DNA from: Escherichia phage C6
Sequence record: MW679410.1
Direction: 5' to 3' (one strand)
DNA: 64,000 nt
In this document: piece by piece, positions 14,402-61,572 of the stretch
How the letters are laid out: the number at the start of each line of letters is the position of its first letter
How positions within the stretch are numbered: position 1 is the first letter of the stretch
Position numbers and translations under genes: made by a program
The notes under the pieces: model-generated
Databases searched by the model: none
The model's input: only the letters and a program-made list of their open reading frames with translations
What the model was told of the DNA's origin: nothing

Positions 14402-14635
14402 TTAAACTACTGGGGTAGGCGTGAACATTGCTGCGTTCTTGGTCTTCCAGTCAGCAGCATCAGTCACTACGGTTGAGTAGGCCGCAACGGCTGAAGGGAA
14501 AGTCTGATAATGAGAGTCTGCAATACGGTGCTCGTTTGAATAAATCTCAAACGGGACCGAAACCTCAGTACCTTTAACTTCTTTGCCTTCACCGGCTGGA
14601 TGTGTAAAGGTTTTGATATTAACGAAACCACCCAT
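14402..14635 (-). CDS. soc: small outer capsid protein Soc
   Basis: 77 aa; GFVNIKTF...HYQTFPS..AAYSTV matches my recollection of T4 Soc; preceded by late promoter. Confidence 0.8.
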   Translation of the reverse strand: MGGFVNIKTFTHPAGEGKEVKGTEVSVPFEIYSNEHRIADSHYQTFPSAVAAYSTVVTDAADWKTKNAAMFTPTPVV

Positions 14636-14666
14636 AATTAACTCCTTTGTTGTTTAATTACAGGTG

Positions 14667-14674
14667 TATTTATA
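14667..14674 (-). promoter_or_regulatory. T4-type late promoter TATAAATA for soc
   Basis: Exact TATAAATA on the minus strand about 30 nt upstream of the soc ATG. Confidence 0.6.
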
Positions 14675-15290: not shown

Positions 15291-15491
15291 ATGGGCAGTA
15301 TTTTTTACCAAATCTGGAAATTGGCCGAAAAGAAAGACAAGAAAATGATGTTAGGTTTTCTTGCGCTAGACGTATTCCTTTGGAATCTTCTAGTAGTCCC
15401 TGTAGCCGCTAGCCAAGGGATAATTTTACCAGCGGTTACAATGGAACACGTGTTAAGCATAATTGGATTCTTTAGCGGAATCCACGCTTAA
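15291..15491 (+). CDS. small membrane protein (66 aa) on the opposite strand
   Basis: Plus-strand ORF with perfect AGGAGG SD 7 nt upstream of ATG; two hydrophobic helices; lies in a 290-nt gap between minus-strand genes 56 and 61. Confidence 0.5.
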   Translation: MGSIFYQIWKLAEKKDKKMMLGFLALDVFLWNLLVVPVAASQGIILPAVTMEHVLSIIGFFSGIHA

Positions 15492-16554: not shown

Positions 16555-16716
16555 TCATTCGTTTTCGGATTTTTCTTTACGCTTTTTAGATGGGATTTGT
16601 TCAGGCCCTTTGTTGACGACAGCGCCTGAGGTAGTTCCGGAGGCAATAGCAGTAGGATTACCACCTGCATCACCTGCGACCATATCTTCGTTCATAACTT
16701 CTTTAAAAGATTTCAT
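16555..16716 (-). CDS. small hypothetical protein (53 aa)
   Basis: Hand-translated ORF MKSFKEVMNEDMVAGDAGGNPT...; AGGAG SD; TATAAATA-like element just upstream. Confidence 0.4.
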   Translation of the reverse strand: MKSFKEVMNEDMVAGDAGGNPTAIASGTTSGAVVNKGPEQIPSKKRKEKSENE

Positions 16717-16732
16717 AGGCTCCTGGCCTTAT

Positions 16733-16924
16733 TTATATTACGAAAATAGCTTTATCACCATTTGCATCAGTGACTTCATAGGTATCTTCGTGGTAAAGTG
16801 GAATAATCCAAGTCACACCATCACCAGCAATAATATGGATAGCTTCTTGGTCTTTTGATACGATTTCATATTCTTCGAATAACTCGAATACAGAAATCTT
16901 AGAGCCCGTACACATTGCACTCAT
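16733..16924 (-). CDS. hypothetical protein (63 aa)
   Basis: ORF. Confidence 0.5.
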   Translation of the reverse strand: MSAMCTGSKISVFELFEEYEIVSKDQEAIHIIAGDGVTWIIPLYHEDTYEVTDANGDKAIFVI

Positions 16925-47782: not shown

Positions 47783-48124
47783 CTAATAGAAACTTTTTTC
47801 ACCGGCTTGTCCACTAAACCAAGCGGACTGGGTGTTCTCTTTCCGTCGGTGTTCAATACGAATGCGATATTCATTCCTGATGGCGCAGAGTTCACCTCGG
47901 AAGTCGCCTGCCAACTGTACCTGCTTGCGGTCTAGATTTATTAAGGCTTGGGTCTTCGCTGCCAAGAGCAGTCTCCTGTAGTCTCCTTCTTCACAATCAG
48001 TTTTATAAACTTTATTAGTATATCCGTCGATAAGTTCTTTATCATAGTCCTCGACAGATTGTTTCATAGCTTTGGAAAAAGTCTGACCTGCATTAAAAAG
48101 ATTGTAAATAAATTGTTCGAACAT
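47783..48124 (-). CDS. hypothetical protein (113 aa)
   Basis: ORF. Confidence 0.55.
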   Translation of the reverse strand: MFEQFIYNLFNAGQTFSKAMKQSVEDYDKELIDGYTNKVYKTDCEEGDYRRLLLAAKTQALINLDRKQVQLAGDFRGELCAIRNEYRIRIEHRRKENTQSAWFSGQAGEKSFY

Positions 48125-49115: not shown

Positions 49116-49152
49116 TATATTCTCCATTTCACTCAGTAGATTTGATAGGTCC

Positions 49153-49181
49153 ATAATAACATGCTCTACGAGGTTGTAAAC
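49153..49181 (-). promoter_or_regulatory. T4-type early promoter cassette
   Basis: Minus strand GTTTAC-N17-TATTAT; divergent from the plus-strand late promoter. Confidence 0.55.
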
Positions 49182-49187
49182 TACTTT

Positions 49188-49195
49188 TATAAATA
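49188..49195 (+). promoter_or_regulatory. T4-type late promoter TATAAATA
   Basis: Exact TATAAATA on the plus strand 22 nt upstream of the ATG at 49218, followed by AAGGAG SD. Confidence 0.6.
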
Positions 49196-49217
49196 TTTTA
49201 TTTAAAGGAGAAGGTTT

Positions 49218-49973
49218 ATGATTATATCAGCAAAAACCATCGATGAATTGAACGAGAAGGTCCAGTTAGCATTAGACGATAACTGGCATCTTTTTGGTTC
49301 AACGGTAGTCCTTCCTAATACTGTAACTGATAACAGCGAACGATTCTTTCAAACGATGTCAAAATCAGTTACCCAGATTCCAGGACCTCCTGGACAAAAA
49401 GGTGATAAAGGTGACCCCGGAAATCCTGGCGACCCGGGAGTTCAAGGTGAACCAGGAAAGTCTTCATACCAATTATGGATTGATGAAGGTAATAGTGGAA
49501 CAGTAGATGATTTTTTGACTGCAATAGCAGGAAAGAGAAGAAAATCAGAAGTGTTTTGGAGTGGTATAAACGTTCTATTAACTAATGGTGCGACTTCAAA
49601 CATAATTAGTATTTTAAAGGGGATTCCGCCGACAGCAGGGACTCTATCTCCGTTTTTTAGAACTGCTGATGATAAGATGTGGCCATATAACCAAGACAGA
49701 AGCCTAATGTTTAAACTCAACCTTATTGGTAATTTTACAGGAGTCTCGCAAGCTCGAAGTATAACATTAAATTTCGTTGGAACCAACGGAAACACCTATA
49801 CACAGAACCGTCCAGAAAATGCTACAGATATTTTGTCTTTTACGACGTTCTTTAGCATTGATAAAGATGGGGCAATGGCAACCAATGGTACAGCTATAAC
49901 TGTTACGCCAAATGGCGGCAACTTTACAATAACCTCTGCATTGTTAGTAGCTGAACAAACAGTGACTTCATAA
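49218..49973 (+). CDS. collagen-repeat protein (251 aa), probable late/virion-associated
   Basis: Plus-strand ORF; nine Gly-X-Y triplets (GPPGQKGDKGDPGNPGDPGVQGEPGKS); Asn/Thr/Gly-rich beta-type C-terminal domain; own late promoter and terminator. Confidence 0.75.
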   Translation: MIISAKTIDELNEKVQLALDDNWHLFGSTVVLPNTVTDNSERFFQTMSKSVTQIPGPPGQKGDKGDPGNPGDPGVQGEPGKSSYQLWIDEGNSGTVDDFLTAIAGKRRKSEVFWSGINVLLTNGATSNIISILKGIPPTAGTLSPFFRTADDKMWPYNQDRSLMFKLNLIGNFTGVSQARSITLNFVGTNGNTYTQNRPENATDILSFTTFFSIDKDGAMATNGTAITVTPNGGNFTITSALLVAEQTVTS

Positions 49974-49980
49974 ACAAAAA

Positions 49981-49998
49981 AAGGGCCATATGGCCCTT
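49981..49998. terminator. bidirectional stem-loop terminator
   Basis: AAGGGCC-AUAU-GGCCCUU palindrome; U-run on the minus-strand side, A-run on the plus side; sits between convergent genes. Confidence 0.6.
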
Positions 49999-50236
49999 AG
50001 ATTGCACTCCAAAAATTATGGAATCTTATAGTATTGATAGCCCAGTTAACAAACCTGCGAGTTTGTTTGGGAGTTGGTTTACATACATATTTGACATTGA
50101 CTCGGCGTCCGGTTTCTTTACAGACGGCTTCAAGATACCAACGTCGAGTTTTATGAGGTCTTCCATACGATAGAAAGACGTTAATTTCTTCTTTAGCGGT
50201 AATAAGCGTTGTGGTTGTCAAGGTACACCTCTTCAA
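49997..50236 (-). CDS. hypothetical basic protein (79 aa)
   Basis: ORF. Confidence 0.5.
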   Translation of the reverse strand: MKRCTLTTTTLITAKEEINVFLSYGRPHKTRRWYLEAVCKETGRRVNVKYVCKPTPKQTRRFVNWAINTIRFHNFWSAI

Positions 50237-53259: not shown

Positions 53260-53643
53260 TTATTCTAACGTCAGCAAATACTTAGTCTGGTAAAAGACGC
53301 CAGTGATATCGTCCAAAGTCGACTGGATGGCCTTAGGAAGGGTGTCATAGATTTTATCAGATGCTTTAAGAAGCTCGTCAAGAAAATCTACCGGGTCCTT
53401 AGGCAAGTCTGAAGCAGACGGTAATGATGCTTTATATTCTTTGCCACTGAATCCAAGATATTGCTCACTAAATTGGTCCAGAGGTCCTTGAACTTCTACA
53501 TAATAGAAGTCATACGCTTTGTGTCTTGCATAGCTTTTGGTTTCTAAATGGGCTGACTTAAAATAGGCTAAAGAAACCAGTAGCCAACCAATATAAGAAT
53601 CCACTTCAGACCCTCGACCGGGTACGAAATCATTGAACTTCAT
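53260..53643 (-). CDS. hypothetical protein (127 aa)
   Basis: ORF. Confidence 0.55.
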   Translation of the reverse strand: MKFNDFVPGRGSEVDSYIGWLLVSLAYFKSAHLETKSYARHKAYDFYYVEVQGPLDQFSEQYLGFSGKEYKASLPSASDLPKDPVDFLDELLKASDKIYDTLPKAIQSTLDDITGVFYQTKYLLTLE

Positions 53644-53923
53644 CTTCCACCTTCATTAGTTTTACATAACGCTCTCCGATGGCGCGACCTTCAATTGAGC
53701 ATGCTTCTATAGTCCGACAACTTGAATTCTTCCAGGAAGCCGTAACATAGGCCCAATAGTCTTCGGAGGCCTTTACGCTAGGTCTACTCATTTGCGCATA
53801 AACAGGCATCGCACTACTAGCAAACGCGTCCATCAATTTATCATTGGTATCATTTGCTAGTGAAACTGAAGGGCCTAAACATCCCGCCATAAGGATACAA
53901 GCCGCTGTACGGAAAATATCCAT
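53630..53923 (-). CDS. rI: RI-like lysis-inhibition antiholin (signal-anchored periplasmic protein)
   Basis: 97 aa, N-terminal signal/anchor; same length as T4 RI and in the same position two genes upstream of tk. Confidence 0.5.
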   Translation of the reverse strand: MDIFRTAACILMAGCLGPSVSLANDTNDKLMDAFASSAMPVYAQMSRPSVKASEDYWAYVTASWKNSSCRTIEACSIEGRAIGERYVKLMKVEDEVQ

Positions 53924-54015
53924 ACAAATGTCCTTTGTTGTTTTATACTATTTGCCTTTCGGCCTTAACCGATAGCGATTACCAAAAGCTAAAGCTCTAC
54001 GGTTAGTATTATTAT

Positions 54016-54294
54016 TTATAGCTTTTTAAGCTTACGACAATAAGAATAGAACACGTCGTTAAAATTATATTCAACCCAATTCCTCTGTATAGGCGAGGTA
54101 ATGGAAAGCATATAATGCGCTTTAATTAAATCCATCCCATTTTTATTAGGACACTCTTTATTATTAGCATTATACGTCGCTGCTACAACCTCTATCTCTC
54201 TTTTGTAAGCCACACCATCCATGATAGGCAAAAGAACAATATAAGAAATAGCCACAGCGAACGCTAGAATTAAAATCTTTGAATTTAGGTCCAT
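54016..54294 (-). CDS. membrane protein (92 aa)
   Basis: N-terminal TM helix. Confidence 0.5.
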   Translation of the reverse strand: MDLNSKILILAFAVAISYIVLLPIMDGVAYKREIEVVAATYNANNKECPNKNGMDLIKAHYMLSITSPIQRNWVEYNFNDVFYSYCRKLKKL

Positions 54295-60662: not shown

Positions 60663-61061
60663 TTATTTGTAGGTTTTCATCCAATTCTTGAACAAAGCCG
60701 CGACGTCTTTCTCTTTAACGTTCAGTTTAACGTCCAACATTTTACCACCCGCTGCTCTCGTTTGGCGAATCTTAGCAGTACCGGTTTCACCATTCCACTC
60801 AACATAATACTGTCCAGTGTTCATTGCAATACCGTCACCGTAGTCTTCATTTTTAGAAGTGGTGAAGGCCAGCTTCATAGTCTTAGAGACGCGAGCCTGC
60901 ATGCCTGTCTGCAGAGCGTTACGAACTCGAATAACCTGAGGAGTGGCCTGGGTCAGGTTCTCATTCAGTTCTTCAGTGAACTCTTCAGATTCAAACATAT
61001 CCAAAAGTTCTTTAGATGCAGGAATTACATTCTCTGCGATAAATTCATTATAAGTTTTCAT
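60663..61061 (-). CDS. internal protein with capsid-targeting sequence
   Basis: 132 aa; N-terminus [11 protein letters not shown]. Confidence 0.7.
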
Positions 61062-61542
61062 ATGCTTTCCAAGTACCTGTTTTAAATGTAGAAATCACGC
61101 GCTTAGCACGATTAGGAGTTTGTCTATACCAACGAGATTGGGCCAGGTTAACTGCCGCATCGTCCCAACGTTTCTGTTGGAGCATACGTAAAGAGTTAGT
61201 GAACCCGGCTACACCTGCTTCACCCATCTGGAAGACCATGTTAATTAAAGCACAACGACGAACTTCGTCCAGCACATCATAAACAGGTTTCAATTTAGGA
61301 TTACGCAGAATAGCTCTACGAGCATTTTCAACCGATCGGTTAAAGAGTTGCTCAGCTTCAGCCATAGTAATACGGCCATTACAAACCCGGCCCATAAGCT
61401 TATCAAGTTCAGCGCGAGCAACATCTTTAGATGGGTTCTTGGTAACCAACTGACCAATCCCAATAGTCCAATAACCTTCGGTGTCTTTATAAAGATTTAA
61501 ATCAAGACCTTCGTCTTGACGTAACATATCAAAAATATCCAT
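61048..61542 (-). CDS. e: lysozyme (endolysin, T4 e family)
   Basis: 164 aa; [32 protein letters not shown]... matches T4 lysozyme. Confidence 0.9.
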
Positions 61543-61572
61543 AATACCTCCTGAGTATAGGAGGTATTTATA

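Follow-up and report, generated by a model that had tools for sequence, protein, structure and literature searches.

In the 64,000-nucleotide stretch of Escherichia phage C6 analysed here (sequence record MW679410.1; hereafter the window), a lone plus-strand gene set among minus-strand genes encodes a protein that joins a DUF1737-type N-terminal module, a short collagen-like tract, a helical linker and a C-terminal knob related to that of the phage Sf6 protein gp9. This gene, which we call the knob gene, appears to be expressed late from a T4-type promoter of its own and to be nested within an early-gene cassette of the promoter-early stem-loop (PeSL) type. We propose that its product is a non-essential, late, homotrimeric accessory fibre of the virion, most likely anchored to the head, a reading to which we give about an even chance; that the protein forms part of the virion, at whatever site, we consider probable. 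The window belongs to a Dhakavirus, a JS98-like T-even phage (top match in the phage collection MN04, 96.9%), and the knob gene product matches a “hypothetical protein” of Escherichia phage C6 with 100% identity. The family to which it belongs is already known: it is catalogued as PHROG 1030, and knob homologs with N-terminal extensions and of unknown function were noted in T4-like phages in 2013 (Leavitt et al. 2013, PMC3741392). What appears to be new is the identification of the N-terminal module as DUF1737, from which the head-fibre hypothesis derives, the PeSL-type nesting of the gene and its mosaicism at the level of domains.

Domain architecture of the knob protein

The C-terminal domain is, by sequence comparison and predicted structure, a genuine Sf6-type knob. 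Residues 103-247 match the Pfam family PF16532 (Phage_tail_NK) with 114.1 bits against a cut-off of 27 (E = 7e-33), and a phmmer search of the PDB retrieves the knobs of Sf6 gp9 (3RWN, E = 8.8e-32) and of HS1 (4K6B, E = 4e-31) at ~40% identity. In the AlphaFold2 (AF2) model the predicted local distance difference test (pLDDT) value of the knob is mostly above 90, and Foldseek superposes it on 3RWN and 4K6B with template modelling (TM) scores of 0.85-0.90 and root-mean-square deviations of 1.7-2.4 Å. The next matches are TNF/C1q-like trimers, namely ExsFA, the spike knob of phi812 (rank 10), PRD1 P5, EDA, C1QL, adiponectin, collagen X NC1 and the TNF-like lectins BC2L-C and PLTL; although the TNF/C1q-like matches have a Foldseek probability of 1.0 and E values of 1e-5 to 1e-3, their identity is 9-13%, which makes this a likeness of fold and design and not membership of one family. 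The design common to PRD1 P5, the adenovirus fibre, C1q/C1QL, adiponectin and collagen X NC1 is that of a distal trimeric jelly-roll nucleating a fibrous stalk. PRD1 P5 and the adenovirus fibre are attached at five-fold vertices through unrelated N-termini.

The relationship to the Sf6 gp9 and HS1 knobs extends over 145 C-terminal residues and includes, besides the jelly-roll fold, the glutamate pocket. In Sf6, an L-glutamate lodged between subunits is contacted by Glu146, Lys200, Ser248 and Asp250, with Arg232 in a structural role (Leavitt et al. 2013, PMC3741392). These pocket residues map to E111, K166, S213 and D215 of the C6 protein, and Arg232 to R198, all five of which are invariant or nearly so in an alignment of 26 homologs; the Ser and Asn of the Sf6 phosphate site are not conserved in the knob of C6. 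The resemblance ends at the knob, since Sf6 gp9 carries an N-terminal tail-plug and a trimeric coiled-coil shaft where the C6 protein has the DUF1737 module and the collagen stalk. A P22-like tail needle (gp26/gp9) was accordingly ruled out as an identity for the protein: Pfam and PHROG scans return only DUF1737, Collagen and Phage_tail_NK, and the homology to Sf6 gp9 starts at the knob. The name “tail needle knob”, used in RefSeq for family members in AnYang, RB43, PEi20, fHe-Yen9-01, Miller and others, is misleading because the protein has neither plug domain nor coiled-coil shaft, and it does not suit a host phage that is a myovirus with a gp5-type spike.

Upstream of the knob runs an uninterrupted series of nine Gly-X-Y triplets, which is the only collagen run that the six frames of the window contain; runs of at least six triplets occurred in 0 of 20,000 shuffles of the protein. 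The Pfam Collagen match (E = 7.6e-5, 22.8 bits) stays under its cut-off of 27.2 because the tract is short. On its C-terminal side the tract is followed by the predicted trimerisation domain, the knob. Its length varies among homologs from 0 triplets in RB43-like phages to ~27, with fHe-Yen9-01 exceeding C6. The linker that follows is predicted to form two short helices and is conserved across the family with the consensus KSxYQxWLxxGNxGTxxDFL, which is repeated in some homologs. From homology and from the presence of the collagen tract we infer that the protein is homotrimeric. Neither a signal peptide nor a membrane segment was detected in it. A preliminary description of this locus, made from the letters of the sequence, had already recognised the nine consecutive triplets and an Asn/Thr/Gly-rich C-terminal domain of beta type, and had likened the whole to fibre, decoration and adhesin-like proteins. 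The triplets are as described; the C-terminal domain, 41% of which is Asn, Thr, Gly or Ser, has a beta-type fold that Pfam, phmmer, Foldseek and the AF2 model now specify as a TNF-like jelly-roll; and the proposed kind of architecture, a collagen stalk with a distal beta-rich domain, is borne out by homology to the virion knob of Sf6 and to DUF1737.

The N-terminal module resembles domains of the Pfam family DUF1737 (PF08410), which is matched by seven of seven diverse N-modules of the knob family (best E = 6.5e-6). A profile of the N-module searched against 1.8 billion representative proteins found short single-domain proteins, most of which pass the DUF1737 cut-off, and hhalign of the N-module with ten of these short proteins (eight scanned, seven passing the Pfam cut-off) gave 99.4% with E = 7e-22. 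With the N-terminus of phi24B gp84 alone, hhalign gave 69%, E = 4.4e-5 and 19% identity; the gp84 entry (vb_24B_21) itself carries DUF1737 at 65 bits, together with SASA and DUF6645. Modelled alone by AF2, the N-module reaches a pLDDT of 84.6, with strands at residues 2-5, 23-32 and 42-49 and a helix at residues 8-20, and in a fold search of the BFVD this model matches viral proteins named DUF1737 with TM scores of 0.8-0.93. No solved DUF1737 structure was found in the copy of the PDB that we searched with the N-module profile and with a genuine DUF1737 profile.

Late promoter and early-gene cassette

Ahead of the knob gene lies an exact copy of the T4-type late promoter octamer (Table 1). It is the only copy on the plus strand in the 64 kb, with four others on the minus strand, and the number of copies is not enriched (5 seen against 6.4 ± 2.4 expected, both strands together). 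As the count is not significant, the case for a late promoter is built on position and conservation. All five exact copies are intergenic, in the right orientation and upstream of open reading frames (ORFs), namely soc, a 53-amino acid (aa) ORF, the knob gene, rI and the lysozyme gene e. The genes soc, rI and e, which are classical T4 late or late-plus-early genes, provide positive controls within the same window. In knob homologs of Dhakavirus, Tegunavirus (fHe-Yen9-01) and Kanagawavirus (PEi20), the exact octamer is found at -30 to -33, and in a metagenomic T4-like contig at -65, while one-mismatch variants precede the homologs of RB43-like phages (CATAAATA) and of Gaprivervirus (TAAAAATA). 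Thus, either exactly or with one mismatch, the octamer stands upstream of all T4-like copies although the surrounding sequence has diverged; the Shine-Dalgarno (SD) sequence is also conserved. The only candidate for a plus-strand early promoter scores 9/12, and sigma-70-like sites in the region number 8 against a shuffled expectation of 8.8. The knob gene is therefore probably expressed late from a gp55-type (gp55/gp33-dependent) promoter.

Among the other genes preceded by the exact octamer, all on the minus strand, the lysozyme e homolog (164 aa, 61048-61572, ATG at 61542) has it at 61565-61572, 22 nt upstream and thus at the spacing found for the knob gene, and the soc homolog (77 aa, 14402-14674, ATG at 14635) has it at 14667-14674, 31 nt upstream. 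The rI-like lysis-inhibition ORF (97 aa, 53630-53923) has it ~90 nt upstream, at 54013-54020, and within its long leader lies a GC-rich, hairpin-like stretch, ggccgaaaggc. The 53-aa ORF (MKSFKEVMNEDMVAGD..., 16556-16737), just upstream of the primase gene, has it 13 nt upstream, at 16730-16737.

Table 1 Sequence features of the knob gene and its immediate surroundings in the window
Feature	Positions	Strand	Details
Sigma-70-type early promoter of nrdC.10	49153-49180	-	-35 TTTACA (49180-49175), 16-nt spacer, TG-extended -10 TATTAT (49158-49153)
T4-type late promoter TATAAATA	49188-49195	+	Exact octamer, ends 22 nt 5' of the knob-gene ATG
SD sequence AAGGAG	49205-49210	+	7 nt 5' of the knob-gene ATG
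DUF1737-collagen-linker-knob ORF, 251 aa	49218-49973	+	ATG 49218, TAA 49971-49973
DUF1737-type beta-alpha-beta-beta module	49218-49373	+	Residues 1-52; putative virion (capsid) anchor; Pfam, hhalign, AF2
Collagen-like tract, 9 Gly-X-Y triplets (GPPGQKGDKGDPGNPGDPGVQGEPGKS)	49383-49463	+	Residues 56-82; 6 Pro; uninterrupted
Helical linker, motif KSSYQLWIDEGNSGTVDDFL	49464-49529	+	Residues 83-104; helices 83-89 and 96-104 (AF2 model)
Sf6-type TNF-like jelly-roll knob	49530-49970	+	Residues 105-251; Pfam PF16532, PDB, Foldseek
GC hairpin AAGGGCC-ATAT-GGCCCTT	49981-49998	both	Flanked by A7 (49976-49982)

Next to the late promoter, and directly abutting it, is the early promoter of nrdC.10, which points the other way and, with a score of 10/12, is the top sigma-70 match between positions 48000 and 51500. 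It is kept in IME08, IME341 and T4, and its presence does not depend on that of a knob gene. Behind the knob gene, the GC hairpin folds stably on either strand (-12.9 and -15.5 kcal/mol), and a U-tract (TTTTTTTGTTT) follows it on the minus strand only, the plus strand continuing with TTAGATT. Since the U-tract is confined to the minus strand, the hairpin would act mainly as the terminator of the converging early transcript and, for the knob gene, as a weak or partial terminator at best. Hairpins of differing sequence occupy the same position 3' of every knob homolog and are also present at the empty sites of IME08, IME341 and T4. At these empty sites the spacer from the terminator (A-run, hairpin and T-run) to the early promoter measures ~23 nt in IME08 and IME341 and ~30 nt in T4; in C6, the segment ~49189-49975, containing the late promoter, the SD sequence and the ORF, exactly replaces this spacer.

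A hairpin followed by a strong early promoter is the arrangement of the PeSL elements of T4-type phages (Arbiol et al. 2010; Comeau et al. 2014; PMC2839356, PMC4122927), in which a strong sigma-70-like promoter and a stem-loop terminator share an intergenic space of ~100 bp. The empty sites of IME08, IME341 and T4 likewise have such a promoter close to a predicted stem-loop, in a hyperplastic region and next to variable ORFs. The nrdC.10 promoter also fits the T4/PST PeSL consensus TTTACW-N17-TAYWAT (PMC4122927), except for a spacer of 16 instead of 17 nt. The knob gene thus appears to be nested, on the opposite strand, inside a PeSL-type cassette in the nrdC.11-nrdC.10 interval. In C6, unlike in the known elements, the cargo lies within the cassette, is encoded on the opposite strand and is preceded by a late promoter of its own; a term search of PMC2839356 and PMC4122927 found no mention of late-promoter or opposite-strand cargo. 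In IME341 (L002 3037-3419), the place of the knob gene is taken by an unrelated 84-aa minus-strand ORF (MNIKAPFAGNVIRED...), which has a copy of the early-promoter segment (window 49140-49188) on either side and resembles a PeSL-flanked module.

Most of what the preliminary description had said about this locus stands. The exact late promoter, kept upstream of the homologs, the AAGGAG sequence and the 251-aa plus-strand ORF are all present where it had placed them, so that the picture of a self-contained late unit on the opposite strand is sound, and the early promoter that it had seen back-to-back with the late one, serving the neighbouring AAA ATPase gene, is real by consensus. T4 indeed has no counterpart here, nrdC.10 and nrdC.11 being adjacent across a 114-bp gap with nothing between them. 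Two points have to be narrowed. The hairpin had been called a palindromic terminator of the knob gene; it is stable, but it is a canonical intrinsic terminator for the minus strand, with no U-tract on the plus strand. The gene had also been described as the single plus-strand unit of the region, which is correct for ORFs of at least 250 aa, 17 of the 18 in the window being on the minus strand with the knob gene as the sole exception, but a second, small plus-strand gene exists at 15291-15491, 34 kb away. It encodes a hydrophobic protein of 66 aa (PHROG 2024, unknown function), adjoins the primase gene and has a strong SD sequence, AGGAGG, with a one-mismatch late-promoter variant, AATAAATA, ~28 nt upstream.

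The knob gene is flanked on one side by nrdC.10 (PHROG 1250, an AAA-type NTPase) and on the other by nrdC.11 (an RlaP-type nucleotidyltransferase) and a small DUF7279 ORF. For nrdC.10, a start at ATG 49115 (MLTIK..., preceded by GGAGA) fits the PHROG profile and the annotations of MN04 and IME341, which makes the longest-ORF start at 49154 probably wrong; the IME08 annotation is longer still. The DUF7279 ORF (PHROG 8921, 49997-50236, minus strand) likely starts at TTG 50221 after the SD sequence AGAGGTG, giving 74 aa, and overlaps nrdC.11 at the latter's 3' end. MN04, IME341 and RZ carry this ORF and AnYang and IME08 lack it, so that it behaves as an independent presence/absence unit beside the knob cassette. 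An Rfam scan of the window returned no RNA family at threshold.

Family distribution and domain mosaicism

The C6 gene is a member of the family typified by RB43 ORF128w, with full-length homologs at 45-97% identity that include AnYang gp031, PEi20 ORF-099 and fHe-Yen9-01 gp120 as well as copies in Miller, CfP1 and Margaery. These genes encode the same N-module and knob and have a hairpin at their 3' side, whereas their collagen length and immediate neighbours vary. In T4-like phages the knob gene is always a lone gene on the opposite strand near nrdC.11, patchily distributed over at least five genera of Straboviridae, and the whole region is kept in 3 of the 411 phage records that match its flanks. 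A tblastn search with the N-module retrieved 38 records, all 38 of them knob genes of T4-like phages; at the sensitivity of tblastn, no N-module was found on another distal domain in sequenced phages, and one alternative fusion came from a metagenomic Carvaje-like contig.

Such patchiness, together with the location in a shuffling-prone cassette of a hyperplastic region, is what would be expected of a selfish or neutral passenger (a “moron”) without current function, carried about by PeSL-mediated shuffling. We consider this very improbable. Each of the eight homologs compared, which come from five Straboviridae genera and a single siphophage, has an intact ORF; the ratio of nonsynonymous to synonymous substitution rates (dN/dS) is ~0.1-0.3 for every domain that allowed an estimate; the residues of the pocket do not vary; and the late promoter and SD sequence are conserved. 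Intact ORFs and low dN/dS also rule out a pseudogene in decay; the frameshift in related genomes that, according to the preliminary description, would suggest a non-functional gene is not seen. All this argues for a functional gene under purifying selection.

Its domains appear to have separate histories. Compared with AnYang, the synonymous divergence (dS) of the N-module and linker is 0 while the knob is saturated (dS 2.85); compared with the Gaprivervirus RZ, the reverse holds, with a knob dS of 0.13 and a saturated N-module. By these values the gene is mosaic at its domain boundaries. A similar pattern is suggested outside the T4-like phages. In the siphophage Carvaje, the knob gene sits between the large terminase and portal genes, and in the Carvaje-like metagenomic contig (L014 8001-9563) this slot is filled by a protein of 520 aa, P0039, in which two DUF1737-like modules in tandem precede repeated “...IQWR...” units and a beta-rich C-terminal part without Pfam match. 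To judge from their sequences, P0039 and the Carvaje knob protein are two versions of one design, an anchor with an exchangeable distal domain.

A candidate accessory fibre of the virion

We propose that the C-terminal knob trimerises and thereby sets the register of a short collagen triple helix, as happens in PRD1 P5, adiponectin, C1q and collagen X NC1. The triple helix would form a stalk of variable length and the DUF1737 module would anchor the fibre to the particle. The exposed knob, with its glutamate pocket, might serve as a weak auxiliary adhesin or sensor that keeps the phage near hosts or surfaces, and not as the primary receptor-binding protein. Lying in the spacer of the cassette, the gene could be gained, lost or exchanged by homologous recombination between co-infecting T4-like phages while early transcription remains undisturbed. 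Both the attachment site and the ligand are predictions.

The reason for favouring the head as the anchor site is that DUF1737 is the capsid-binding domain of gp84 in phage phi24B. According to cryo-electron microscopy of that phage, DUF1737 is the capsid-binding anchor of the decoration protein gp84 and forms a hexamer over the central pore of the face-centre hexons (bioRxiv 10.64898/2026.04.10.717836). The two proteins have much in common. The N-module of gp84, a NanS-p esterase, has ~50 residues with one helix and three strands and belongs to the same Pfam family as that of C6; in both proteins a linker leads from this module to a functional domain that is, or in C6 would be, exposed; and both genes are late and located outside the core capsid genes. 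They differ in the distal part, an esterase in gp84 and a collagen stalk with a knob in C6, and gp84 is a hexamer on a T=9 podovirus capsid, anchored by a “tooth”, Tyr42, in a loop that enters the hexon pore; the C6 counterpart of Tyr42 is Thr. For the knob itself, a free-standing knob protein, gp119 of the Vi01-like myophage Sajous1, was detected with 16 spectra in CsCl-purified virions, at a level similar to neck proteins (PMC10892097). These virion data and the late promoter, together with the homology and the mosaic anchor design, lead us to favour a displayed trimeric fibre. Among T4 proteins the closest analogues would be Hoc and Soc, which, like the proposed C6 fibre, are dispensable, late and added to the exterior of the particle; soc, present in the window, has the same exact octamer. 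Neither shares the fold of the C6 protein; Hoc consists of Ig-like domains and binds as a monomer, and AnYang has Hoc-like genes alongside the knob gene.

A number of observations weigh against a head fibre. The N-module of C6, taken singly, scores 18.2 bits (E = 0.0024) where the DUF1737 gathering cut-off is 24. At the position of the gp84 Tyr42 “tooth”, the C6/AnYang/RZ lineage has Thr and Carvaje has Ser, the placement of the gap in this loop being ambiguous; the position is Y or F in fHe-Yen9-01, PEi20, RB43 homologs, P0010 and P0012. DUF1737 is hexameric on the phi24B hexons whereas the knob predicts a trimer, although two trimers per pore would reconcile the two, and the Sf6 needle/hub interface likewise accommodates a 3:6 mismatch. 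The virion knob protein of the Vi01 type has no DUF1737 module, and beyond these Sajous1 virion data our literature search found nothing relevant on proteomics, transcriptomics or structures of the T4-like homologs. Dhakaviruses that carry the knob gene also encode Hoc, which in T4 holds the centre of the hexon. The hairpin 3' of the gene, moreover, has no U-tract on the plus strand. As for the function of the knob, in P22/Sf6 hybrids it played no role in host specificity and changed only the kinetics of DNA delivery, and mutants of the glutamate pocket had no phenotype (PMC3741392); the role of the Sf6 knob itself is described only as “possibly implicated”. Stand-alone DUF1737 proteins occur, in the BFVD, in the giant viruses Hyperionvirus, Yasminevirus, Terrestrivirus, Edafosvirus and Harvfovirus and in the T4-like vibriophage nt-1. 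DUF1737 is thus not confined to phages whose capsids resemble that of phi24B and, as the giant viruses have no HK97-type capsids, it is not universally a capsid anchor.

Several of these observations would be accommodated by an accessory fibre on the tail, neck or baseplate, in which the N-module docks a component of the tail or connector and the knob contacts the cell envelope, modulating triggering or the kinetics of DNA delivery in the manner of the Sf6/P22 tip. The sole members of the knob family with an experimentally determined place, Sf6 and HS1, are at the tail tip; a TNF-like knob of similar structure caps the central spike of the myophage phi812; Hoc already occupies the hexon centres in Dhakavirus; and the “tooth” residue of the capsid mode is not kept in the C6 lineage. 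We nevertheless find a tail position unlikely. The C6 protein has no needle plug domain or coiled-coil shaft, its N-module is homologous to a capsid-binding domain, and the Carvaje-like gene lies within the head-morphogenesis block, between terminase and portal. The tail tip of T4-like phages is moreover formed by the gp5/gp5.4 spike, which leaves no needle position.

The occurrence of DUF1737 mostly in single-domain proteins, giant viruses included, shows that capsid binding is not universal and would also suit a protein outside the virion: a soluble late trimer acting as TNF-like lectin or ligand binder, either released at lysis or intracellular, which might mask receptors on debris and neighbouring cells or bind a small carboxylate, with DUF1737 as a module for oligomerisation or interaction. 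The fold is akin to that of the soluble TNF-like lectins BC2L-C and PLTL, the gene lies outside the structural gene blocks, the literature search gave no proteomic support from T4-like phages, and the gene is dispensable, since most Dhakaviruses have no knob gene. We doubt this explanation too. Virion proteins are among the products of late-promoter genes that lie outside the structural blocks, soc with the same octamer being an example; all knob homologs that have been tested belong to the virion; an anchor, a variable spacer and a distal domain are typical of displayed fibres; and the protein has no signal peptide or membrane segment.

That the proposed fibre replaces a missing Hoc was rejected as a general rule, AnYang having both the knob and Hoc-like genes and IME08 having two Hoc-like genes. 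IME08 (L010) has, in addition, two gene 24 paralogs and a tail-fibre-like gene after gene 24. In RB43 (L020 17353-17856), only two “Hoc-like head decoration” ORFs of 61 and 47 aa are present, so that hoc looks fragmentary, and the RB43 group uniformly carries the knob gene; with regard to Hoc replacement these fragments, from one genome only, are suggestive. As a bolder and more tentative step, which we put forward with some doubt, the knob proteins may represent an unrecognised class of head fibres on T4-like capsids, in which a collagen-stalked knob is held on the gp23/gp24 shell by DUF1737. Two such trimers could occupy each hexon pore, or the fibres could lie at positions free of Hoc; they could either coexist with Hoc or displace it.

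T4-like phages, the best-studied of the myoviruses, serve widely in phage therapy and as display platforms, yet their hyperplastic regions still hold many late genes of unknown role. For one of these genes, the link to DUF1737 converts a misleading annotation into a specific and cheaply testable hypothesis, that of an optional, domain-swappable head fibre. The locus also offers what appears to be a clean case of late, opposite-strand cargo within an early cassette, which extends the picture of how genes move between T4-like phages. If the hypothesis is true, DUF1737 would be a portable capsid anchor used over the HK97-type shells of podo-, sipho- and myoviruses, and the “needle knob” of Sf6 would be a general displayed ligand-binding domain that is not tail-specific, an exchangeable lectin-like module for surface adhesion. 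A head fibre of this kind could affect adsorption, retention in mucus or on surfaces, particle aggregation or immunogenicity, and an anchor that functions on gp23 shells would be a ready-made display handle independent of Hoc or Soc.

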